Below, piece after piece: positions 1,428-60,064 of a DNA stretch of 64,000 bases; the stretch's first letter is position 1, and each line of letters opens with the position of its first letter. A program made the position numbers and the translations under genes. The notes beneath the pieces were generated by a model, which ran no database searches, was not told where the DNA came from, and saw only the letters and a program-made list of their open reading frames with translations. This DNA is from Minisyncoccota bacterium (GTDB lineage: Bacteria; Patescibacteriota; Minisyncoccia; Phycocordibacterales; UBA9973). Location of the stretch: assembly GCA_041675085.1 (NCBI GenBank), contig JBAYUN010000004.1:2032-66031 (forward strand). The letters run 5' to 3'.

Positions 1428-3389
1428 TTATTTATTCAAAATAACACGTGATTGAGGTCCTAGTATACCGTCAGCTTTTAGTCCGTTGTCCGCTTGGAAT
1501 TTCTTTAATGCTACTAGAGTATTGTAGCCAAATTGATTCACCTCTCTGCCCCCTTCTGTGCCAGATACGTTGTAACCTTTTTGATTAAGTTTTTGTTGCA
1601 AACATTTTACTTCATTTGAGTTCTTGCCTTTTAGTAAAGTCCTACTGATTGTACAAATATTTGAATTCTTAGAAATACTAGCTCCCAAGACTTGCCCTCC
1701 TACACATTCTGTACTCATTGAAGTTCTCGGGTAAGAACCAGTATTACCTGCTGCCTTCCAAGAGCTAATAGTTTCGGTCTTGTAGTCTCTAGTACTCGTA
1801 GCACTCGGATACCATTTTTGACAATAAGTTAATGGGTCGATATTGGCACCACTACTACCGTCTGGATCTGTTTGCCAAGTGCCAGATGAATCTGTATGTT
1901 GATTTACTTTACCATACCAAAATGAAATGCGTGGAGTTGTATCGACTGATGGAGTTGTAGGTTCTGCTGGGACCACAGGGTCAGGTGTGACAGGATCTGG
2001 AGTGACTGGGTCGGGAGTAGTCGGAGTTGTCGGTTCTGTTGGAGTGGTAGGTGTAGTTGGAGTCTCTACTGGTGTAGTAGGGGTGACTGGATTTACTGGT
2101 GTAACAGGATTTGTGCCTGGGTCTATGACCGGAGTCTCAGGATTTTCTCCTTTTTTATTGATAGTGAAAAAATCTTTTGAAAAATCTTCAGCTTTTTTAT
2201 CATAAGACTCTGGGCCTAGATGGATTTTAAAATTTTTACCAAATACTATGTCTGGGAAGGAGCCCACAGCTAGAGAAATTTTCTCTTCTCCATCATTCGG
2301 GGTACCCTTCACCAAAATAACAATATATTCTTTTTGATTATTTTTATATATTAAAGATATATTTATTTTTTTATCAGCTGAAGCTTTATTATTTTTCCAA
2401 GTTACTAAAATACTTTCATCTAGATTATAAACTTCTCCACCATTAGGTGAAGTAATTTTAAAGAAGTAAGAATTATTTTCATCTTCATCTATACCAGCTT
2501 GAATACATAAATAAGACAACTTTGTAGAAGTGTGATTATTAAAATTGTATCTCTCATGCCAAGTACTAATAGTCTCTAATTTGTATTCTTTGATGCCAAT
2601 AGTTTTTGGATACCATTTTTTACAATAAGTTAGATAATCTAAATTCGCACCAGAGATACCGTCGGGATCTGTTTCCCATTTACCATTGGTTGTATTAATA
2701 TGTTGATTTACTTTCCCCCACCAAAACATAACTCTAGGTAATAAATCATCACTACCTGGTTTGTCTTCTCCTTTCTTTTCTTCCACGATAGCATCATCTG
2801 ATTTTTTGTCTTCTGTTTTTACCTCTGTGGTTTTTGCCTCTTCTTTGACCTCGGTTTTCACTTCACTTACTACTTCTTTTTGAACTTCTTCTTTAGCTTC
2901 ATCTTTCTTCGATTCTGTTGCATTTTCTGAATTTTCTATTTTTTTATCTTCTTCTTTAATTTCTGTTTTTTCTACATCTTTGACTTCGTTGGACTGAGTC
3001 TCAGAAACAACACTTTCTTCTTTTTGGACTTCTTCTGTACAAGTTAATTTATTGATAGTCTCGCGAGTAAGTGGACCCACGAAGCCAGCAGAGACTAGAT
3101 TGTTGTCTCTTTGAAAAGTCCTAACAGCTCCTAAAGTCTGCTCTCCAAAGTATCCATTTGGTTCTGCTTTTAGATAACCTTTTTCTTTTAAGAAATTCTG
3201 CAACAACAAAACATCTCTTGTATTAGACGCTCTGTCAGAAGCACGATATCTCAAACTCTTATTAATAGAAACACAAACAGCAGAATTCTCTGTGTTTTGA
3301 ATTTGCTCTATTTCAGCATTTTGAGCAAAAGAAAAAATAGGGCTAATTATAAAAGTTAAAACCAATACAAGCTTTATGATTTTTTGCAT
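1428..3389 (-). CDS. Secreted cell-wall-associated protein: signal peptide, N- and C-terminal PG_binding_1 domains, Glu/Lys-rich and Pro/Thr-rich linkers, two copies of the YWWGKVNQH..LTYCKKWYP domain
   Basis: 653-aa ORF with PG-binding motifs (LQNFLKEKGY..FG..T..AV..FQ, and C-terminal VKCLQQKLNQKGY..DGILGP). The repeated modules are PRVMFWWGKVNQH.. and PRISFWYGKVNQH... Confidence 0.8.
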   Translation of the reverse strand: MQKIIKLVLVLTFIISPIFSFAQNAEIEQIQNTENSAVCVSINKSLRYRASDRASNTRDVLLLQNFLKEKGYLKAEPNGYFGEQTLGAVRTFQRDNNLVSAGFVGPLTRETINKLTCTEEVQKEESVVSETQSNEVKDVEKTEIKEEDKKIENSENATESKKDEAKEEVQKEVVSEVKTEVKEEAKTTEVKTEDKKSDDAIVEEKKGEDKPGSDDLLPRVMFWWGKVNQHINTTNGKWETDPDGISGANLDYLTYCKKWYPKTIGIKEYKLETISTWHERYNFNNHTSTKLSYLCIQAGIDEDENNSYFFKITSPNGGEVYNLDESILVTWKNNKASADKKINISLIYKNNQKEYIVILVKGTPNDGEEKISLAVGSFPDIVFGKNFKIHLGPESYDKKAEDFSKDFFTINKKGENPETPVIDPGTNPVTPVNPVTPTTPVETPTTPTTPTEPTTPTTPDPVTPDPVTPDPVVPAEPTTPSVDTTPRISFWYGKVNQHTDSSGTWQTDPDGSSGANIDPLTYCQKWYPSATSTRDYKTETISSWKAAGNTGSYPRTSMSTECVGGQVLGASISKNSNICTISRTLLKGKNSNEVKCLQQKLNQKGYNVSGTEGGREVNQFGYNTLVALKKFQADNGLKADGILGPQSRVILNK

Positions 3390-4083: not shown

Positions 4084-4452
4084 TTATTTTAATTCAACTT
4101 TAGCACCTGCGTCTTCAAGTTGTTTCTTAAGAGCTTCTGCTTCAGCTTTCTTCATACCTTCTTTTAGGTTTGCTGGAGCACCGTCTACTAAGTCCTTAGC
4201 TTCTTTAAGACCAAGTCCTAAAGCTTCTTTAACAACTTTCATAACAGCGATTTTTTGTTCACCTGCACCTGCTAATACTACAGTGAAAGAATCTTTTTCT
4301 TCACCTGCGTCTGCAGCGCCTGCAGCTGGACCAGCACTTGCTACAGCAGCTGCTGAAACTCCAAATTTTTCTTCTATTGCCTTAACGAGTTCGTTCAATT
4401 CAAGAACTGTTGCTCCATCAAGGTCTTTTAAAAATGCATCAAATTTTGACAT
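4084..4452 (-). CDS. rplL: 50S ribosomal protein L7/L12
   Basis: Ala-rich hinge and a C-terminal domain ([27 protein letters not shown]..). Confidence 0.95.
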
Positions 4453-4464
4453 ATGTTTTTTCTG

Positions 4465-4540
4465 TGTGAAATAAAATAAATTTTACTAGAGCCTTACCTT
4501 TATGACTTAACGAAGTAAAATTTGATTTTATTTCACGTTA
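4465..4540 (-). promoter_or_regulatory. Large imperfect stem-loop (about 22-bp stem, 28-nt loop) plus a roughly 45-bp direct duplication in the 182-bp rplJ-rplL spacer
   Basis: gtgaaataaaataaattttact .. agtaaaatttgattttatttcac. The unit ctagagcMttaMcttt..acttaacg occurs twice. Confidence 0.35.
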
Positions 4541-4634
4541 TATTTTTTTATAAATAAATTTTTCTAGAGCATTAACTTTTTAACTTAACGCAGAAAGATT
4601 TTATTTATAAAAAACATTAATTAAAACTAATAAT

Positions 4635-5114
4635 TTATTTTGTTTTAGCTACTTCATTAACTGCAATAGCCAAACGTTGCATCGGAGATTGCAATAAGAA
4701 TGCAACCTTTGAAAGCAACACTTCGCGACTAGGAATAGTAGCGATTTCTTTCATATATACTCCGTCCACAAATTTACCACCAAAGATACCACCTAAAATA
4801 TTTAGAGGAACTTTGTAAGTTTTTTGGAAATTGTATATTTCACGAGCTGGAGCTAATTCATCATCTGCATAAGCCATAGCGACTTCACCATTTAATTCTG
4901 GTAATTCACCAGTAGCCTTGCCGTCCAATGCACGCTTCAATAAAGTCTTGCGACTTATTTTGTAGCTCACTCCACTCTTTCTCAAGTCTTGACGCAAGAG
5001 AGTTTCGTCTCCTACTTTCAATCCATGGAAGTTTACGAAAACTACAGATTTACTATTAATAACTGCAGTCTCTAAACCTTTTATCATTTCTTCTTTTGTT
5101 GATTTTTTTAACAT
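4635..5114 (-). CDS. rplJ: 50S ribosomal protein L10
   Basis: Typical L10 sequence, lying upstream of rplL. Confidence 0.9.
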   Translation of the reverse strand: MLKKSTKEEMIKGLETAVINSKSVVFVNFHGLKVGDETLLRQDLRKSGVSYKISRKTLLKRALDGKATGELPELNGEVAMAYADDELAPAREIYNFQKTYKVPLNILGGIFGGKFVDGVYMKEIATIPSREVLLSKVAFLLQSPMQRLAIAVNEVAKTK

Positions 5115-5142
5115 ATTTTTTTACCAATTAATATTGGAAATT

Positions 5143-5166
5143 AAAAAACGGCTTTATTAAGCCGCA
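5143..5166 (-). promoter_or_regulatory. Leader hairpin plus T-run about 30 nt upstream of the rplJ start, consistent with an L10-leader attenuator
   Basis: cggcttaataaagccg is followed by TTTTTT on the minus strand. Autoregulatory attenuation of the L10 leader is established in other bacteria. Confidence 0.4.
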
Positions 5167-5276
5167 AGATTTTCTCCTTTATATATCTAAAATACATAAA
5201 GAATATCGACCCACTCAATAGGACTTATGGACGCCTATCGTCTTTGCGGTAACAGATATAATATAACATATTTTCT

Positions 5277-5426
5277 TTAATTTGCAAATGAAGGATTATT
5301 ATCACTCAATTCTGTACTTGCTGTCTGTTGTTCATCCAAATAACTCACAAGGAAAATGACTCCCAGTCCGAGCACTATCATACCCGTAAATAAAACCAAA
5401 GTTTTCATAAAATGTTTATTAATCAT
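5277..5426 (-). CDS. Small 49-aa single-TM peptide (MINKHFMKTLVLFTGMIVLGLGVIFLVSYLDEQ..); sits where secE would be relative to rplJ, not verified
   Basis: Intact ATG..TAA ORF, absent from the ORF track because it is shorter than 60 aa, with a hydrophobic core. Confidence 0.3.
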   Translation of the reverse strand: MINKHFMKTLVLFTGMIVLGLGVIFLVSYLDEQQTASTELSDNNPSFAN

Positions 5427-5511
5427 AAAGTGATTATACCAAGAATTCTACAATAAATACAAAAACCTCTCCTGTTTAACAAGAGAGGTTTTTGAGTAAA
5501 ATTTTATCCAA

Positions 5512-6006
5512 TTAGCTTTGTAATAAGATAGTAGATACGTTTTGAGATTTATCACAATCCACTAAATAAGTTACAGGTAACTTGCTAGCAGAAAGTTTGA
5601 TAATTTTGAAACCATAAGCTTTGATCGTATAAGTAGAACCGACTTTAACTGTACGTGATACAGGAGCACGGTTGTCTAGCATTATACTTGTGCCATTTTT
5701 GAAAGTCATCTTATCAGGACTTGCTTGGCAAGTTTTATCTAATTGAAGACGAGCATCTTTGTATTTTATTAAAGCTTGCTCATAACTCAAACTAACTGCA
5801 GGTGAAGTAGCTACGTCTTTGTCAGGAGTTGTATCTAATTCCCCTGCTACGTTTTCTTCTACTACAACTTCTTCTTGTACTATATTGTTTTCATTTTCCA
5901 ATACATCATCAGCATCATTTTTTTGTGTCGACATAAAAACAATAACTGCGATAACTACCAACACAATTCCACCTATCATCCAAATATTCTTATTTTTTTC
6001 TTCCAT
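5512..6006 (-). CDS. Membrane-anchored hypothetical protein
   Basis: 164-aa ORF with an N-terminal TM segment. Confidence 0.55.
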   Translation of the reverse strand: MEEKNKNIWMIGGIVLVVIAVIVFMSTQKNDADDVLENENNIVQEEVVVEENVAGELDTTPDKDVATSPAVSLSYEQALIKYKDARLQLDKTCQASPDKMTFKNGTSIMLDNRAPVSRTVKVGSTYTIKAYGFKIIKLSASKLPVTYLVDCDKSQNVSTILLQS

Positions 6007-6090
6007 ATAATTTATTTTTCTAAAAAACTTGATAATATTAATTATAACATTTACAAAATAAATTAGATAGTTTGTCCAGAGCTTTTGTCT

Positions 6091-6501
6091 TTATTTTTTA
6101 AGGGAATGGTAGAGTATCAGAATTACAGAAAAAACAAAATATAGCACAGAGAAATATAAAGCAAATATATCTTTTTCGATTCTAAAGTAAACGTCCCCTC
6201 CGTTCCATGGAGTAATCCATATAATTAAAAAATAAATTATTAAATAAAAAAACAAAGTTTTTATCCAGTATTTAAAAATCTTATTATTTAAAAAAATCAA
6301 AATAAAATTAGGAATTAAAATTGTAACAAATATAAGCAAAAACATTAGCACATAATTCATTGATTGCAAACAAGAACTTTTTTGAATACTACAAATATCC
6401 AACAGGATTGTTTTATTTAAAAATATAAAAAACAAAACAGTCAAAAAAGAGCTAAGCAAAAATAATTTCTTCGCGCTAAACCAATTCAAAATTTTATCCA
6501 T
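6091..6501 (-). CDS. Small polytopic membrane protein
   Basis: 136-aa hydrophobic ORF. Confidence 0.45.
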   Translation of the reverse strand: MDKILNWFSAKKLFLLSSFLTVLFFIFLNKTILLDICSIQKSSCLQSMNYVLMFLLIFVTILIPNFILIFLNNKIFKYWIKTLFFYLIIYFLIIWITPWNGGDVYFRIEKDIFALYFSVLYFVFSVILILYHSLKK

Positions 6502-6505
6502 AAAT

Positions 6506-9500
6506 TTAAATTTTAATAAATCTTTTAATTAAGAAACTGCTCAATAATACTATAAATATAATAACATAAAAAGAAGTATTTTTATTTGTATTTTTTTCTT
6601 TTAAGACATCTACTGATTCCTTCGGGCTATCATCTGCAATCTCTTCTGCTTCTATCTGCACAGCACCTTCACTCTTATTTTCGATCAATACTTTTTCTTC
6701 TTTTTGTATTTTTATATCTTCACTCTGACTAGGTATTTCTGACTCGACTCCTAGAACTATACCGATACTTGGAGTAATATTTTCTGTTTTTGATACTAGC
6801 TCTTTTTTAGCTTCATTATCTTTATTTATCAATATCACTACTCCATGAGAAGACGGAGGAGTAATAGGCTCCGGCGTCGCCACCTTGGGATAAATTGTAT
6901 CTATCGTCCCATCACCGTCTGAATCCACCTTGAGTTCGGCTTTACTAACTTCAAAATCTTCTCCAATATAAAGATACGCCAAAGTCTTATCCGAGCTAGG
7001 TATCATTTCAAAATAATTCTCTTGTATTATATTGTTGCCCTCTTGCCTCTCGACGTCTAAAGTAAAACTACCTTCTTCATAGCCGTCTAATTGCAAAGTG
7101 TACGGAATACCTGCAGGCGCTGAGATGAATTGAACTGTGCCAATCATATCATAATTCACATTAGGTATTTCTTGCTTTATCTCTTTTGTGACGGGATCGA
7201 GTCCTGTATATCTACCCTCTTTATCAAAGATACCCAAGGTTAAAGGTGAGTGTAAGGTGAAATGAAGACGAGCATTACTTGCAACAAAATTCAAATTATC
7301 ATTTTTTAAAACAATCCCTTCGTTGTCAGTGAAAACTTTATCAGTAATTTGCGCCTGAATAAATTGTATTAAATTCTGAATTTCTAAAATATTTTTATGG
7401 TCTCTTCTGGGTCCAGGTAAACTGTTAAAAAGAGGCAAATTAATAACCCACTCCTCCACATTCTCACGATTTTCCATCCACAAAGCACTTGGAAAAGCTA
7501 CTGTCGAATCTCCATCGACCGATACTATCGGTTTATGCGAAACGTATTCTCTACCTAGTCCGAGGAGTTTGCGTTTGATTACATATTTTAATCCTACTTT
7601 TGTTTCTTCGCCCCAACCTGCAACTTCTATGATTTTAGTGTTTGGACTCGGTTGCCAATTGTCTATGACTCCATGAGTTAGTTCTGCTTGAGAATATAAA
7701 TACTCATTTACTATGTTTGGCTTGTCGGTATCACTGACGCTAGGTTTAGCACGCCCGTCACCACCCAAAACAAAATCTTTTAATTCTTCTTTTGTGTTGA
7801 TAGAGCTACCGTATTTAGATATTAAATTTTCTAATAAAGGATGATCTTGGAATGATAGAATTGGATTTTGATCTGTATCTACAGTATTAAAATATCCACT
7901 AGATGGAGCTAGGTTGTATATCGTCGGCATATTCTCTCCGAATTCCCGAGACCGCTCAGAAGGCATCAGTATACCAAAAGGCCCTAAAGGTACGCCATGG
8001 AGCATAGCGATAGTCGCCTCTGGTGTGCCGACTTGAGGCACAGCTATAAAAATTATTTTTTCTATTTGGTTGTAGAGTGGATCATTTGTATCTTTTAATT
8101 TCTGAACCAAGGCTTTGATAACGAGTCCTCCGGTACTGTGGGCTATAAGAGTGACTTTGCCTGTCCTAGAAGTTCTCTGTAATTCACGCAACTCACTCAC
8201 AATAAATGATTCAGAAAAATCGCCACTATTTAAATATGACAAATTCTCTCCGATAACTTTCCCGTTTATAATAATATCTTCTAAAGAAAGTCTCCAATCA
8301 TAAGGAATCAGAGCATAGTCTTCAATCAAACTCAATTCAGTATTTTTCAAATTTCTTAAATCCGCAATAAATGATTTATAAATATTCACAGTCAAAGCTT
8401 CGTCAATAACTCCGAGCTCTCCGCCGTCCCCTTCTACACTCTCAGTATCATTTTTTGTATAAACATTATTTTTACTTTTCCCAAATTCATCTAAGAACAT
8501 AAACTCTTGCAAAACTTTATGTGGTGAAACCCAAAGTTGTTGCTCTCCACAGAACATAGGATCCCTAGGCGTAACCGAACTACAATCAAAAACTTCACCA
8601 TACATTCTAGAACCTTGCACTCCCGGGAAAAACATAACATTAGAATTACAATTTTTTACACACTCTTCTACTGGTGGCCAGCTAGGTAGCCAAGGTTCAA
8701 AAAGGATATGTTCACTCACAGAGTCGCCAAGCCCATTAGGATTTAAATCCACATGATACGGCCCAGTAGCGTCACCCCAATAATTATTGTTAAAATCTAA
8801 ATCTACGTCTCTAAATGTAAAAGCTCCCGATAGAATATTGTTATGTATATTACTTTTATTTGCTGAGAATACTGAGTCGTAAACAACAAAACCATATAAG
8901 TTATCAGTGATCTCGCTATCAGTTATTTTTACAAAACTATCTCCAAAATTATTAAAAACAATAAACCCAGAATCCATAGCCCCAAAGACTTTTACTTTTT
9001 TAAAATTAGCCTGTACGTTGTTGAATAAAGACATACCATAAACACCACAATTCACAGACCCAGTATTAAAATCCACCGCAGAATTATTGTAAACAGAAAT
9101 CCCAGTATTATCACAAGATATCTCAGAATTCAACATATTAAGATGAGAATCATTATAAACTAAAAATCCACCACGACTACCACTTAGGCTCCCGTCTTTG
9201 AAATTCAAATTACTATTACCAAATACAGATATGCCAGAATTAGATTGATCAAGACTCAGGATATCTACATTAGTGAATGATGCTGAAGCATTATTATAAA
9301 TATTTACAATAGAATCTTGATTAAGACTCTCAACTTTAGAATTTTTTAATATTAAATTGCTGTAATCCTGGACTTCTATTTTTGCCTCGCCCGAGAAAAG
9401 AGAGTCATTTATCTCAACCATACTAGAGTCGTACAAATACAAACTCGTCGCTTTTAAATCTGCAAATTCTGAATTAGTTTCAAAAAATAAAATATCATTA

Positions 9501-41117: not shown

Positions 41118-41191
41118 TCCGTCCTCATGGATTCGAACCATGGACCCCAGAGGTATAAGCTCTGTGCTCTAACCAACTGAGCTAAGGACGG
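41118..41191 (-). tRNA. tRNA with anticodon UAU (reads AUA), i.e. tRNA-Ile(UAU)
   Basis: Manual cloverleaf: acceptor CCGTCCT/AGGACGG, D-arm GCTC-AGTTGGTTA-GAGC, anticodon stem CAGAG/CTCTG with loop CTTATAC, T-arm CATGG-TTCGAAT-CCATG, discriminator A. Confidence 0.65.
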
Positions 41192-43141: not shown

Positions 43142-43345
43142 AGACTATATAATAACATAAAATTTGAGAAAATTAAAGGATAAAAAACCGACTTTTAAAT
43201 GTTGGGTTTTGGGTAGAGTTTTGTGATACTCCGCTCGTTTGTACTCGCGGAGTCCTACAAAAATATAATTCTTTTTTGGTTTTGTGGCGCCGTATGATTA
43301 CATACGGCATCCTACAAAAATATAGTCGCTATGCTCCTTATTTTT

Positions 43346-43746
43346 GTGGAGATGACGGGAATTGAACCCGTGTGCAAAAGATGACTATATTAAAATCTAC
43401 ATGTGTAGCTTGTTTATATTTTTAAATTAAAAAATTCTTAAAGAAGCAAAATATTTTTTAATCGAGCTTGAATTTTCATAAATACGTTCAGCACGTGTAT
43501 CTCTTATCCCGATAATATTTTGCCAGTTTTCATATATCGGAAGTCTATGAAACTGACACCAACCTGCGCGCTTAGGCGAAAGCTGGAGCGAAAGCAAAGT
43601 CCTTCATACCGAAGTATGGAGAAACTCCTGCCTTAACCTTAGAAGCTAATTTTGCAATTAGACATTTGAACTTTGATTTACGAGAAAACTTCCCTACTCG
43701 ACATGCATTAATATAGCGAGACCTCTTGTCTATGCCTTGCATCCCC
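43346..43746 (-). ncRNA. ssrA: tmRNA (SsrA), tag reading frame ..GMKDFAFAPAFA*
   Basis: 5' GGGGATGCAAGG.. pairs with the 3' ..CATCTCCAC acceptor; the T-arm is GGGTTCAATTCCCG; the in-frame tag ends AFA then TAA; it lies next to smpB. Confidence 0.75.
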
Positions 43747-56736: not shown

Positions 56737-57306
56737 ATGAAAAAAGAGATAATTACTATTAGTGGACTACCTGGAAGCGGCAAAAGTAGCACAGCAGACA
56801 ATGTTGCCAAAAAGTTAGGATTCAGTCGCTTTTCTTCTGGAGATTTTATGAGACGCATAGCTCTCGAAAAAGGAATCAGTCTAAACGAATTATCCAAAAT
56901 AGCAGAACAAGATCAAGGTCAAATAGATAAAGAGATAGATGATAGTGTTACTGAAATGTCAAAAGAAAACAAAGTAGTTTTAGATTCTAGACTCGCTTTT
57001 CATTTTATCCCCAATAGTTTCAAAATCTTTTTAGACCTTCCTCCAGAAATAGCAAAAGAAAGAATCTTGAATAATTTAAAAACAAATACCCTCAGGGCTC
57101 AAAGCGAAAATGCAACTACAACAGATGAGGTGTTCCAAAAAATAACTGAAAGACTAGAGAGTGAAAAAAAGAGGTACCGCGAACTTTATAATCTTGACTA
57201 TACCAATAAAGAAAATTTTGACCTAGTGATAGATACAAATAAAAATAATTTAGAAGAAGTCGTAGAAATAATTCTCAAGGAATATCAGGCTTGGCTACAA
57301 TCTTAA
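56737..57306 (+). CDS. cmk: Cytidylate kinase family
   Basis: ITISGLPGSGKSS..FSSGDFMRRIA. Confidence 0.65.
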   Translation: MKKEIITISGLPGSGKSSTADNVAKKLGFSRFSSGDFMRRIALEKGISLNELSKIAEQDQGQIDKEIDDSVTEMSKENKVVLDSRLAFHFIPNSFKIFLDLPPEIAKERILNNLKTNTLRAQSENATTTDEVFQKITERLESEKKRYRELYNLDYTNKENFDLVIDTNKNNLEEVVEIILKEYQAWLQS

Positions 57307-57343
57307 ATTAAAAATCCTCCCAAATGGGAGGATTTTTAATTTA

Positions 57344-58729
57344 CTATCTAAAGTTGATAACGTTACCGTTCTCAAGAATGATAGCCCCTTCAGGACAGCC
57401 TAATAAGAAATTGGCATAAGCACGAGTAGTTTTGTATGTATAACCCGTAGCTTCGGAAATTACCCAAGGAATTAGCACGTATTGTCTGTATTTAGTTTGG
57501 AATGCACGAATTGCTATTTCAGTATTGCCTCCATACAGGCCGTCTAAAACTAAATTAAAGCCTTCGTATTTGTTCAAAAATGCTTGCCACAATCTAACTT
57601 CTTGAGGATCATTGTTGATATCACCTTTTTTCAAATATTTAGTAAAGACAGGACAAGCTCTTTGGGTATTATCAATAGGAGAATTTACAAAAACTGTATT
57701 GTTGTTATTTATTGGCGGATTCTGAACTTGGATTTGTTGTTGGACTGGTACATACACAGAATTAGATGAAGTACCATTCGGTCCAGTACAAGTCAGGATA
57801 AAGGTTGTAGAAGCAGTCATGTTGCCAATAGTTTGATTGCCGCTATTTGCACTCTTCTCTCCTGTCCAACCATTACTTGCAACACAGCTTGTAGCATCAG
57901 TCACATTCCAATTTAGAGTGACGATACCTCCGTATGGTGTAGGTATAGGAGAAGCATTTAAGAAGACTGCAGGTGGATTTGATATTGGTTGAGACACAGG
58001 CACATATACAGAAGCATTAGAGCTACCTCCAGGACCCGTACAAGTCAAAACGAAAGTAGTACTAGCACTCATATTACCAATAGATTGATAACCACCATTT
58101 GCGTTTTTGGTACCAGTCCAACCATTACTTGCAATACAGTTTGTAGCATTACTGATATTCCAACTTAGGTTAGTAACTCCATTATAGGGAGAAGGATTTG
58201 GAGATGCTGATAGAGATATTTGAGGTGGATTTTGAGGCTGAGCAACATCAGTAGGAGGATTTATCGGAGGGTATGAAACTGGTGGTGTTCCAGATTGAAT
58301 ACACTCTAGAGAAGTAGTAACTCTAATATAGTCCCCTTGCTCGTAGTATTTAGATCTTTTCCAATTTGTAATAGTTTCTACTTTATAATCCCTAATACCT
58401 ATTGTTTGTGGATACCATTTTTGACAATAAGTAAGCTTATCTAAATCAGCTCCACTAACGCCATCCGGATCTGGTCTCCAGAATCCAGCAGGATCTACGT
58501 GCTGATTCACTTTACCCCACCAGTACGCAATACGAGGAGTTGTATCATTACTAGATACTAAAGGCAGAGAAACTTGAGAAGCAGGATTTACCAGATTGCT
58601 AAATTTATCGGCCACGTTATTAAATACACTTGCTAGACTTAATTCTCCAGGACTTTTCAAGACAACAAAACCTACTAATAAAACTCCGAAAATCAAAGAG
58701 AAGAGTGCTACATTTTTTTTAATCAACAT
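57344..58729 (-). CDS. Secreted protein: YWWGKVNQH..LTYCQKWYP domain, two Ig-like repeat domains, C-terminal PG_binding_1-like domain
   Basis: PRIAYWWGKVNQHVDPAGFWRPDPDGVSGADLDKLTYCQKWYP; two near-identical modules of about 75 aa (SPNPSPYNG..TCTGPGG / SPIPTPYGG..TCTGPNG); the C-terminus reads LYGGNTEIAIRAFQ. Confidence 0.75.
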   Translation of the reverse strand: MLIKKNVALFSLIFGVLLVGFVVLKSPGELSLASVFNNVADKFSNLVNPASQVSLPLVSSNDTTPRIAYWWGKVNQHVDPAGFWRPDPDGVSGADLDKLTYCQKWYPQTIGIRDYKVETITNWKRSKYYEQGDYIRVTTSLECIQSGTPPVSYPPINPPTDVAQPQNPPQISLSASPNPSPYNGVTNLSWNISNATNCIASNGWTGTKNANGGYQSIGNMSASTTFVLTCTGPGGSSNASVYVPVSQPISNPPAVFLNASPIPTPYGGIVTLNWNVTDATSCVASNGWTGEKSANSGNQTIGNMTASTTFILTCTGPNGTSSNSVYVPVQQQIQVQNPPINNNNTVFVNSPIDNTQRACPVFTKYLKKGDINNDPQEVRLWQAFLNKYEGFNLVLDGLYGGNTEIAIRAFQTKYRQYVLIPWVISEATGYTYKTTRAYANFLLGCPEGAIILENGNVINFR

Positions 58730-58792
58730 TTAGATATTATAACAAAAAAACATCCAAAGGTGTACTTTGGATGTTTTTTGAATTTATTATAT

Positions 58793-60064
58793 TTAGTATT
58801 CTCTCATTGAGAGTTGAGCGTCTATTTTCTTGATCAAATCTAGAACCACAGACACAACGATAAGCAAAGCTGTACCTCCTAAAGCTAGAGCTGCGATACC
58901 AGAAGCAGCTTGCATAATCAAAGGCAATACGGCAATAACACCCAAGAATAAAGCTCCAAATAAAGTAATACGAGTTAGAACTTTAGAGATATAATCTGAA
59001 GTCGATGCACCTGGACGGATACCTGGAACGAAAGCTCCATTCTTTTGTAGATTGGTAGACAAAGCATCTGGATCAAAAGTAACAGCAGTATAGAAGTAAG
59101 TAAACAAGAATACAAAGATAAAATACAATATACCATACAATAATGATGTTTGAGAGAAAGTACTTAGTGATTGTGCTATTTTTGCAATAGTTGGGTTTGA
59201 AGCTCCTGATAGTACATTACCGATGATTTGTGGGAAAAGAAGGATAGACAAAGCAAAGATAATAGGCATAACTCCAGATTGATTTACACGAAGAGGAATA
59301 TAAGTTGAACCTCCACCGTAAACCTTAGTACCACGTACTTGTTTTGCATAAGTTACAGGTATAGGTCTCTCAGCTTCAGTAACATACACAACTCCAGCAA
59401 TAACAAGCAAACTCAAAACTACGAATAATATATAAAGTGGAATTTGAGAAGGATCGAAAGTAAATATAAGTTGACTGACTTGTGTAGGTAGACTAGCTAC
59501 GATACCAGCAAAGATTATGATAGAGACACCATTACCAATACCGAATTCACTCATAAGCTCACCCAACCACATAATAAGCATTGCACCAGCAACAACTATG
59601 ATAAGATTAGTCATTCTCTCAAAAGTAGTTAGTTCTCCTAAGATACTTTGATTTTCTAATATAGCTAAAAGACTAAAACCTTGGATAGCTGCTAGGGGTA
59701 CGGTCAATATTCTTGAGTATTGAGTAAATTTCTTACGTCCAATATCCCCTTCTTCTTGGTACATTCTCTTTAGAGCAGGCACCATAACAGTTAGAAGTTG
59801 CATGATAATAGAACCTGTAATATAAGGTCCTACTCCAAGCATGATTATAGAAAGATTAGAAAGTCCTCCTCCAGAGAAAATATTTAAAATACCGAAAAAT
59901 TGATTGTTTGATAGGAAACGATTTAATTGCAGAGTATCCACTCCCGGAATTGGAATGGAAGAAAGTAATCTAAATATGATAAGTGAACCTAAAACAAACA
60001 GAATTTTATTTCTGATTTGTTTATCAAACATCATCATTTTCATTTTACTTAGAAATTTTTGCAT
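58793..60064 (-). CDS. secY: Preprotein translocase SecY
   Basis: 10-TM SecY pattern, downstream of rplO. Confidence 0.9.
   Translation of the reverse strand: MQKFLSKMKMMMFDKQIRNKILFVLGSLIIFRLLSSIPIPGVDTLQLNRFLSNNQFFGILNIFSGGGLSNLSIIMLGVGPYITGSIIMQLLTVMVPALKRMYQEEGDIGRKKFTQYSRILTVPLAAIQGFSLLAILENQSILGELTTFERMTNLIIVVAGAMLIMWLGELMSEFGIGNGVSIIIFAGIVASLPTQVSQLIFTFDPSQIPLYILFVVLSLLVIAGVVYVTEAERPIPVTYAKQVRGTKVYGGGSTYIPLRVNQSGVMPIIFALSILLFPQIIGNVLSGASNPTIAKIAQSLSTFSQTSLLYGILYFIFVFLFTYFYTAVTFDPDALSTNLQKNGAFVPGIRPGASTSDYISKVLTRITLFGALFLGVIAVLPLIMQAASGIAALALGGTALLIVVSVVLDLIKKIDAQLSMREY

Follow-up and report, generated by a model that had tools for sequence, protein, structure and literature searches.

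The 64,000-nucleotide stretch of a Minisyncoccota bacterium examined here (contig JBAYUN010000004.1, forward-strand positions 2,032 to 66,031; hereafter the window) encodes two exported surface proteins, p1 (461 amino acids, 57344..58729) and p2 (653 amino acids, 1428..3389). Both genes were recognised from their open reading frames (ORFs) and Pfam matches, and both lie on the minus strand, as do all features of the two proteins described below. They share a small module that occurs once in p1 and twice in p2. Each module is an extracytoplasmic domain of about 85 residues homologous to the growth factor-like domain (GFLD; Pfam APP_N, PF02177) of the animal amyloid precursor protein (APP). The PF02177 family and its fold were already known, from animals; what is new is a prokaryotic clade with a single predicted disulfide and no basic character, placed in surface-protein architectures. 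On balance, we favour the view that the modules are the non-catalytic binding head of a wall-held surface adhesin that recognises a conserved extracellular ligand.

Homology to the GFLD is evident from sequence searches. With hmmscan, p2 matches PF02177 (Amyloid A4 N-terminal heparin-binding) in two stretches at 52.3 bits (E 7.8e-14), above the gathering threshold (GA) of 22.1, while p1 taken alone falls slightly short of it at 20.5 bits. Among 88 related proteins, 79 match the family at E ≤ 1e-3. A phmmer search of all PDB sequences with p2 returned the APP N-terminal domain, in 7MRN (E 4e-8) as well as in 1MWP, 4PQD, 4JFN and 3KTM. Utilizing hhalign, an alignment of prokaryotic modules headed by the p1 copy was matched to human APP, APLP1 and APLP2 with 98% probability (E 1.9e-13, 83 columns); the human APP sequence used is consistent with the PDB alignments.

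The predicted structures lead to the same domain. A preliminary description of the window had suggested structure modelling of the module, and AlphaFold2 gave confident models of p2 copy A (mean pLDDT confidence 91.8) and of the p1 copy (89.7). Searched against the PDB with Foldseek, each model had as its sole significant matches the same 17 APP and APLP2 GFLD chains, at template modelling scores of 0.76-0.86, after which the E-value leaps to 0.3 or more. The models show the alpha+beta arrangement of the GFLD, with short N-terminal strands, one helix and a long C-terminal beta-hairpin sheet, and in them one invariant cysteine lies on the only helix and the second on the final strand. This fold, shared with the GFLD, is otherwise unique among solved structures. 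The preliminary description did not recognise the module as a named domain. It is in fact APP_N, and so maps onto exactly the kind of well-characterised fold which that description had set against its own proposal, although for a bacterium this is a most unusual annotation.

Public precomputed annotation tags p2 with PF01471 and, weakly, PF02177, and records no match for p1. Automated pipelines have already put the PF02177 tag on some prokaryotic members. The Pfam APP_N model detects just 3 of the 22 archaeal proteins that carry the module; it misses most of the archaeal branch, which is left essentially unannotated. In the literature library searched, no paper was found on prokaryotic APP_N or GFLD homologues, and none on the fold as a prokaryotic adhesin module. 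A paper on the origins of the APP family nowhere mentions prokaryotes (PMC3660159).

We determined the number and extent of the modules by running a profile built from the family on the six-frame translation of the whole window. Exactly three instances were found, at 58292-58546 in p1 and at 2496-2744 (copy A) and 1698-1943 (copy B) in p2, with 114-134 bits and independent E-values of 1e-37 to 4e-43; no fourth appeared in this search even at E ≤ 10. The three copies are mutually 48-52% identical over about 89 amino acids, a similarity far beyond chance. The count of three copies in two ORFs given in the preliminary description therefore holds, and the peptides it quoted stand verbatim in the translations of p1 and p2. 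Its coordinates are right for the ORFs as a whole and do not delimit the modules. Its length of about 60 residues was too short, as the module runs some 25 residues further to a second invariant cysteine (C143 in p1, C295 and C562 in p2).

An alignment of 253 prokaryote-type domains with the human paralogues, in APP numbering, relates the module to its animal counterpart. The two have in common a core made up of P32, I34, G39, K/R40, V/L41, N42, H44, G50, W52, D55, P56, G58, L70, Y72, C73, Y77, P78, T93, I94, W97, G101, Y/F115 and C117. Cysteine occupies position 73 in all 253 domains and position 117 in 251, and exactly two cysteines are present in 229 of 250 domain instances. In APP (1MWP), C73-C117 is one of three disulfides, and by homology to APP the two cysteines of the module are predicted to form the equivalent bond. 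Whereas the animal GFLD has the disulfides C38-C62, C73-C117 and C98-C105, the module keeps only the C73 and C117 positions: C38 is replaced by an aromatic residue (W or Y) or serine, C62 by alanine, and C98 and C105 are absent. The module also has a three-residue deletion in the helix region. Polar and aromatic positions conserved at more than 90% across Bacteria and Archaea, whatever the partner domains, include W37, K40, N42, Q43, H44, W52, D55, D57, S60, G61, K75, T80 and N102, and about 11 conserved aromatic positions fall within the 85 residues. The copper ligands of the APP GFLD are H108 and H110; the conserved histidine of the module, H44, is at neither position.

The basic hairpin of APP, C98-KRGRKQ-C105-KTHPH, is replaced in the module by a loop that is two residues shorter and has neither cysteines nor conserved basic residues (consensus [RKH]-x-x-G-N-x-x-x-Y-T-S). 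In the animal GFLD this hairpin (residues ~96-110), together with a positively charged surface, is the heparin-binding feature (PMC10796103), and the prokaryotic modules lack it. Their isoelectric point (pI) has a median of 6.5 across the family and exceeds 8 in 24% of domains; the window copies range from 5.6 to 6.8. Because the loop is not basic and the pI is near neutral, the name 'heparin-binding' that Pfam gives the family should not be carried over to them. They are not APP proteins either, as no APP_Cu_bd, E2 or APP C-terminal family was found by Pfam in p1, p2 or 153 related host proteins.

Both host proteins open with a hydrophobic export signal, read from the translations, and carry at least one PG_binding_1 domain (PF01471) above the cut-off, consistent with PG_binding_1-anchored wall proteins. 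In p1, a signal peptide or signal anchor (MLIKKNVALFSLIFGVLLVGFVVLKSPGELSLASV; 58625..58729) precedes the module (residues ~62-146, 58292..58546; 114 bits against the family profile; predicted disulfide C102/C143). A Pro-rich linker follows, then two Cys-containing Ig-like repeats and a C-terminal PG_binding_1 domain (residues 376-415, 57485..57604), which scores 24.6 bits in the whole protein (GA 23) and 27.4 bits as an isolated region. The longer p2 begins with a signal peptide, a first PG_binding_1 domain (residues 59-111, 3057..3215), a Lys/Glu-rich linker and module copy A (residues ~216-298, 2496..2744; predicted disulfide C256/C295). It continues with a Kre9_KNH-type Ig-like spacer (residues ~313-394, 2208..2453), whose match to PF10342 is weak (E 0.0015; 19.6 bits, under the GA of 24.6), and a Pro/Thr-rich linker. 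Module copy B (residues ~483-564, 1698..1943; 123 bits against the family profile; predicted disulfide C523/C562) is the second of the two Pfam APP_N stretches, and the protein ends with a second PG_binding_1 domain (residues ~584-646, 1452..1640), where PDB peptidoglycan-binding domains also match (residues 572-646). The two PF01471 stretches give p2 85.7 bits in total.

The repeats of p1 are about 84 residues each (residues ~173-340, 57710..58213) and were seen as an internal repeat in the translation. They follow the motif …NLSWN[IV]S[ND]AT[NS]C[IV]ASNGWTG…TF[VI]LTCTGP…, with the cysteine pair conserved in each, and have no Pfam match and no PDB sequence match. The p1 orthologue in a related metagenome-assembled genome (MAG), at positions 5127-7058 of locus L037, has four such repeats to the two of p1. 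It is therefore probable that this is an undescribed Ig-like stalk repeat of variable copy number.

The wider family places the module in similar settings. Partner domains in the 88 related proteins are led by PG_binding_1 (32 proteins), Kre9_KNH (19) and Big_7 (12), with fewer PKD, fn3, CARDB, Kelch and dockerin domains; cadherin-like domains also occur. PG_binding_1 is present in 23 of 43 bacterial hosts taken from the loci and in none of 22 archaeal hosts, in which the partners are Kre9_KNH, FG-GAP, TSP3 and Kazal. The preliminary description had proposed a strongly conserved functional module associated with cell-wall-binding domains. The module is indeed strongly conserved and autonomous, and in bacteria it often occurs together with PG_binding_1; within the window it does always accompany PG_binding_1. 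Beyond it the rule does not extend, both in the archaeal hosts and in the many members that consist of a signal peptide and one module and nothing else. Both p1 and p2 have signal peptides, as do nearly all of 72 host proteins. Two to four tandem copies of the module are present in 63 of 173 proteins. No enzyme domain was detected by Pfam in the 153 hosts scanned.

Fusions of APP_N to type IV pilins occur in both Bacteria and Archaea. One Paceibacterota protein (L013 5467-6549) has a type IV prepilin N-terminus, GFTLIELLVV (Pfam N_methyl and T2SSG), followed by two modules. In Poseidoniales, proteins of 1000-1700 amino acids (L035 3389-8521, L040 5068-8256 and L044) combine an archaeal Pilin_N with modules, FG-GAP and TSP3, and the L035 protein also has a plastocyanin-like domain.

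To gauge the size of the family, we made an exhaustive HMMER search of 1.84 billion representatives of clusters at 50% identity. It matched 703 proteins at E ≤ 1e-3, a number that falls to 552 at a cut-off of 1e-10 and to 211 at 1e-30, with up to four copies per protein. Compared with single prokaryotic sequences, animal APPs reach only some 30-35 bits, and the 552 matches are therefore taken to be essentially all of the prokaryotic type. Lineages were surveyed with a single peptide pattern in one genome per GTDB species, which gave 68 loci. Of these, 32 belong to the candidate phyla radiation (CPR; Patescibacteria), including Paceibacteria, Gracilibacteria, Peribacteria, Komeilibacteria, Nomurabacteria and Absconditabacterales. 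Another 24 are archaeal, many from Poseidoniales (Marine Group II, MGII) and others from Micrarchaeota and Woesearchaeota (DPANN) and further archaea. The remaining 12 come from other bacteria, namely Sandaracinaceae and Haliangiales (Myxococcota), Bdellovibrionales, Omnitrophica and MAGs labelled Gammaproteobacteria. Many of these lineages are episymbiotic, predatory or particle-attached. We also considered whether the module is phage-borne and rejected this, as a relative was found on only 1 of 2.9 million IMG/VR viral contigs.

Some groups have features of their own. The MGII subfamily (L051-L067, from MAGs labelled Poseidoniales or 'Methanobacteriota') is about 71% identical internally and has an insertion of about 10 residues past the DPDG motif (…AGAG…GWGDRKLEYCQRFWP…). 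L058, labelled Salipiger bermudensis, carries an MGII-type protein, and its contig is probably mis-binned. In L003 (Parcubacteria RAAC4_OD1_1), L011, L031, L033 and L039, two to three adjacent genes each encode APP_N surface proteins. Tandem paralogues of this kind in several CPR genomes indicate lineage-specific expansion of the family.

The window, which has a G+C content of 34.6%, is part of a 529-kb contig of metagenome assembly ERZ27247358, and the exact p1 protein lies on ENA contig ERZ27247358 k141_557398, directly downstream of secY. Syntenic orthologues exist in related MAGs, in L037 for p1 (flanks 82-86% identical in nucleotides) and in L001 for p2. Comparison of orthologues gives 62-82% identity for the APP_N modules and 28-48% for the linkers, a difference that suggests purifying selection on the modules. 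Contamination by animal DNA was rejected on several grounds: the genes sit in the 529-kb contig, which is bacterial, with secY and adk on either side or with ribosomal protein genes as neighbours, they have syntenic orthologues in related MAGs, and their identity to animal APP is just ~25-31%.

In the window, the p1 gene interrupts an otherwise conserved ribosomal-protein (spc) operon region, lying between secY and adk (56737-60064; also L069). A cytidylate-kinase-like gene (56737-57306, plus strand) is opposite in strand to p1, and the same arrangement is seen in L037. Rfam places a full-length tmRNA at 43344-43746, a tRNA at 41118-41191 and the 5' end of a 23S rRNA gene at 1-175, all on the minus strand; the last runs off the start of the window, and the p2 gene is about 1.2 kb away from it. 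The module of the L037 orthologue (~5319-5585) has a four-residue insertion directly after the DPDG motif, reading DPDGTQGLWGAQVDQLTYC in comparison with DPDGVSGADLDKLTYC. This is the same site as the larger archaeal insertion, and the loop therefore tolerates variation in length.

We lean towards the binding head of a surface adhesin as the role of the modules because of their export, their anchoring to wall or pilin, the spacers, the tandem copies, the terminal position, the absence of enzymes and the conserved polar and aromatic positions. In 84 of 129 long proteins the module stands at an end of the chain, mostly just after the signal peptide, as against about 40 expected under uniform placement, though truncation of proteins at contig ends inflates this count. 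In the mechanism that we propose, p1 and p2 would be exported and held on the cell wall through PG_binding_1, with the modules displayed on Ig-like and Pro/Thr- or Lys/Glu-rich spacers. A single disulfide, equivalent to C73-C117, would stabilise the same alpha+beta fold that has three in APP. What the head would then bind is an extracellular ligand of conserved chemistry, the most plausible candidate being a glycan or another polymer on the surface of a partner cell or matrix, and tandem copies would add avidity. The same positions are conserved in organisms with and without peptidoglycan, which makes peptidoglycan itself an unlikely ligand; our preferred guess is a conserved glycan or another surface polymer.

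Several points, besides the inflated terminal count, weigh against this reading. The conserved residues may belong to the core rather than to a surface patch. The modules of p2 lie between two PG_binding_1 domains, a misfit to a simple order of head, stalk and anchor. PG_binding_1 could target the wall of a host instead of the organism's own, and the lineage pattern may be biased by the single peptide pattern used.

That flanking arrangement in p2 would suit another function, in which the module binds a polymer of its own envelope, such as a secondary wall polymer or S-layer glycan, and aids PG_binding_1 in holding structural wall proteins. The presence of PG_binding_1 in about half of the bacterial members and the housekeeping context of the p1 gene beside secY are also consistent with it. 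However, the 22 archaeal hosts have no peptidoglycan-binding domain, and archaea, which have no peptidoglycan, keep the same conserved motifs. Many members, moreover, are free secreted single-domain proteins or pilin fusions, which point outward from the cell. We regard targeting of the cell's own wall as doubtful, if worth keeping in mind.

The commonness of tandem copies could also reflect dimerisation or scaffolding, with homophilic contacts between surface proteins or cells as in cis and trans dimerisation of APP E1. E1 and the GFLD are active in dimerisation and synaptic adhesion (PMC10796103), and the heparin-induced E1 dimer 3KTM is among the structure matches. But APP E1 dimers need heparin at the basic loop, copper sites or both, and the modules have neither. 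That polar residues are so strictly kept in Bacteria and Archaea alike would also be easier to reconcile with a small, unchanging ligand than with a protein interface under co-evolution. We consider this role improbable. Contactin-APP structures were considered as a guide to the GFLD interface and set aside, as their interface is on the copper-binding domain and is uninformative for the module.

Binding of heparin or other polyanions, whereby the module would hold sulfated or otherwise acidic polysaccharides by a basic surface, is suggested by homology to the APP heparin-binding domain. Some copies do retain R or K near the hairpin, as in the consensus W-R-E-R-G-N of high-GC members. The shorter, non-basic loop and the pI values given above argue against it, and we give the idea little credence. 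A metal-binding, redox or catalytic centre formed by the conserved Cys and His, as put forward in the preliminary description, could draw on the conservation of His44 (96%) and of the two cysteines (99-100%) and on copper sites reported for the APP GFLD (PMC10796103), but it is very improbable, since the two invariant cysteines align with the C73-C117 disulfide pair of APP and no enzyme partner or catalytic signature was found for the module.

What the APP ectodomain does in physiology and how it arose in evolution are questions of long standing. The CPR, high-GC bacterial, DPANN and MGII groups are mutually 39-49% identical, and the human paralogues stand at 23-26% identity from each of them. 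A specific prokaryotic donor of the animal domain is thus unsupported: with equal distances, no donor lineage stands out.

A few members carry additional cysteines. The 38+62 pair is found in P0070, a bacterial cadherin/PKD protein, and in P0081, a Nanoarchaeia protein; a pair of the 98+105 type is found in P0075, P0094 and P0085. All six APP cysteines are present in P0099 (MERC ERR1711865_92961), from a marine eukaryote metatranscriptome catalogue. The Cys-rich, eukaryote-looking members (P0099, P0075 and P0094/P0177) retain prokaryote-type motifs and add the APP-type C98-x6-C105 hairpin pair; their scores are 64-74 bits with the window copies and 26-48 bits with the human paralogues. They are candidate intermediates. 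Their sources are ERZ23491246 scaffold_9381, ERZ27287267 k119_1585146 and the MERC transcript. When these members served as queries in a word-indexed search, the matches were confined to short, unnamed or CPR proteins, with no named eukaryote among them.

Two of their loci deserve description. P0075 (L071 1102-2553) ends in a transmembrane helix and an Arg-rich tail, and a gene for the eukaryote-specific TCTP adjoins it. L070, which holds P0094/P0177 at 4170-4952, consists of dense small genes, among them DHFR, glutaredoxin and orphans, and from its look may come from a giant virus. On both L070 and L071, Pfam finds mostly orphans. A third cysteine pattern is present in P0092, P0098 and P0027 (JGI/Logan metagenome proteins), which have an extra pair at APP positions 58 and 102 (…DADCTSGA…, …NTAGCGQQY…). 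Its placement suggests an independently evolved second disulfide that would tie the DPDG loop to the hairpin.

These observations allow, tentatively, the possibility that the APP GFLD is not an animal invention, but a branch of an old family of secreted single-disulfide adhesin modules, widespread among episymbiotic, predatory and particle-attached Bacteria and Archaea, and that the GFLD of animal E1 descended from such a microbial module. Descent could have been by horizontal transfer or by deep inheritance, and the rare archaeal, bacterial and marine-eukaryote (possibly giant-virus) members would already carry one, two or all three of the APP-type disulfides. In the motif that all of them share, G-K/R-V/L-N-x-H ... 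W-x-x-D-P-x-G ... Y-C ... Y-P ... T-I-x-x-W ... C, one would then see the mark of an ancestral function in ligand binding. If true, that function could illuminate the debated physiological role of the APP N-terminus.

For the APP field, the GFLD gains a large prokaryotic sister family, with at least 552 clusters at 50% identity (E ≤ 1e-10). It offers single-disulfide versions, expressible in bacteria, for ligand discovery and structural work, and a comparative basis for separating the ancestral fold core from animal additions such as the extra disulfides and the heparin loop. For CPR bacteria and for DPANN and MGII archaea, it provides a head domain that recurs in their surface proteins and pilins. 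To our knowledge, few of the molecules by which these organisms attach to hosts or particles have been identified. What began in p1 and p2 as a domain assignment is, for both fields, an unexpected and experimentally tractable lead.

Set beside known systems, the module hosts differ from the APP family in architecture. The animal GFLD, also called HBD1, is represented by the structures 1MWP, 4PQD, 3KTM, 4PWQ and 7MRK. APP proteins (APP, APLP, APPL and APL-1) consist of E1 (the GFLD and a copper-binding domain), E2, a single transmembrane helix and a cytoplasmic YENPTY motif; the prokaryotic module has none of these other parts beside it, and its partners are PG_binding_1, Ig-like spacers or pilin N-termini. 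Unlike that of animal APP, the prokaryotic module is often in two to four tandem copies, and it is found in Bacteria and Archaea. Carbohydrate-binding modules (CBMs) and lectin-like domains resemble it in small size, frequent tandem repeats, many aromatic residues, flexible linkers and conserved Asp, Asn, Gln, Lys and His. In contrast to CBMs, the module has no glycoside hydrolase or any other enzyme attached to it in the 153 hosts, and its fold is unrelated to that of any solved CBM. The wall-anchored adhesins of Gram-positive-type and CPR bacteria are alike in their export signal, terminal binding module, variable beta-sandwich repeats, low-complexity Pro/Thr or Lys/Glu linkers and non-covalent wall-binding domain, and in a repeat number that varies between orthologues. 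What sets p1 and p2 apart from those adhesins is the head, which here has an APP-type fold.

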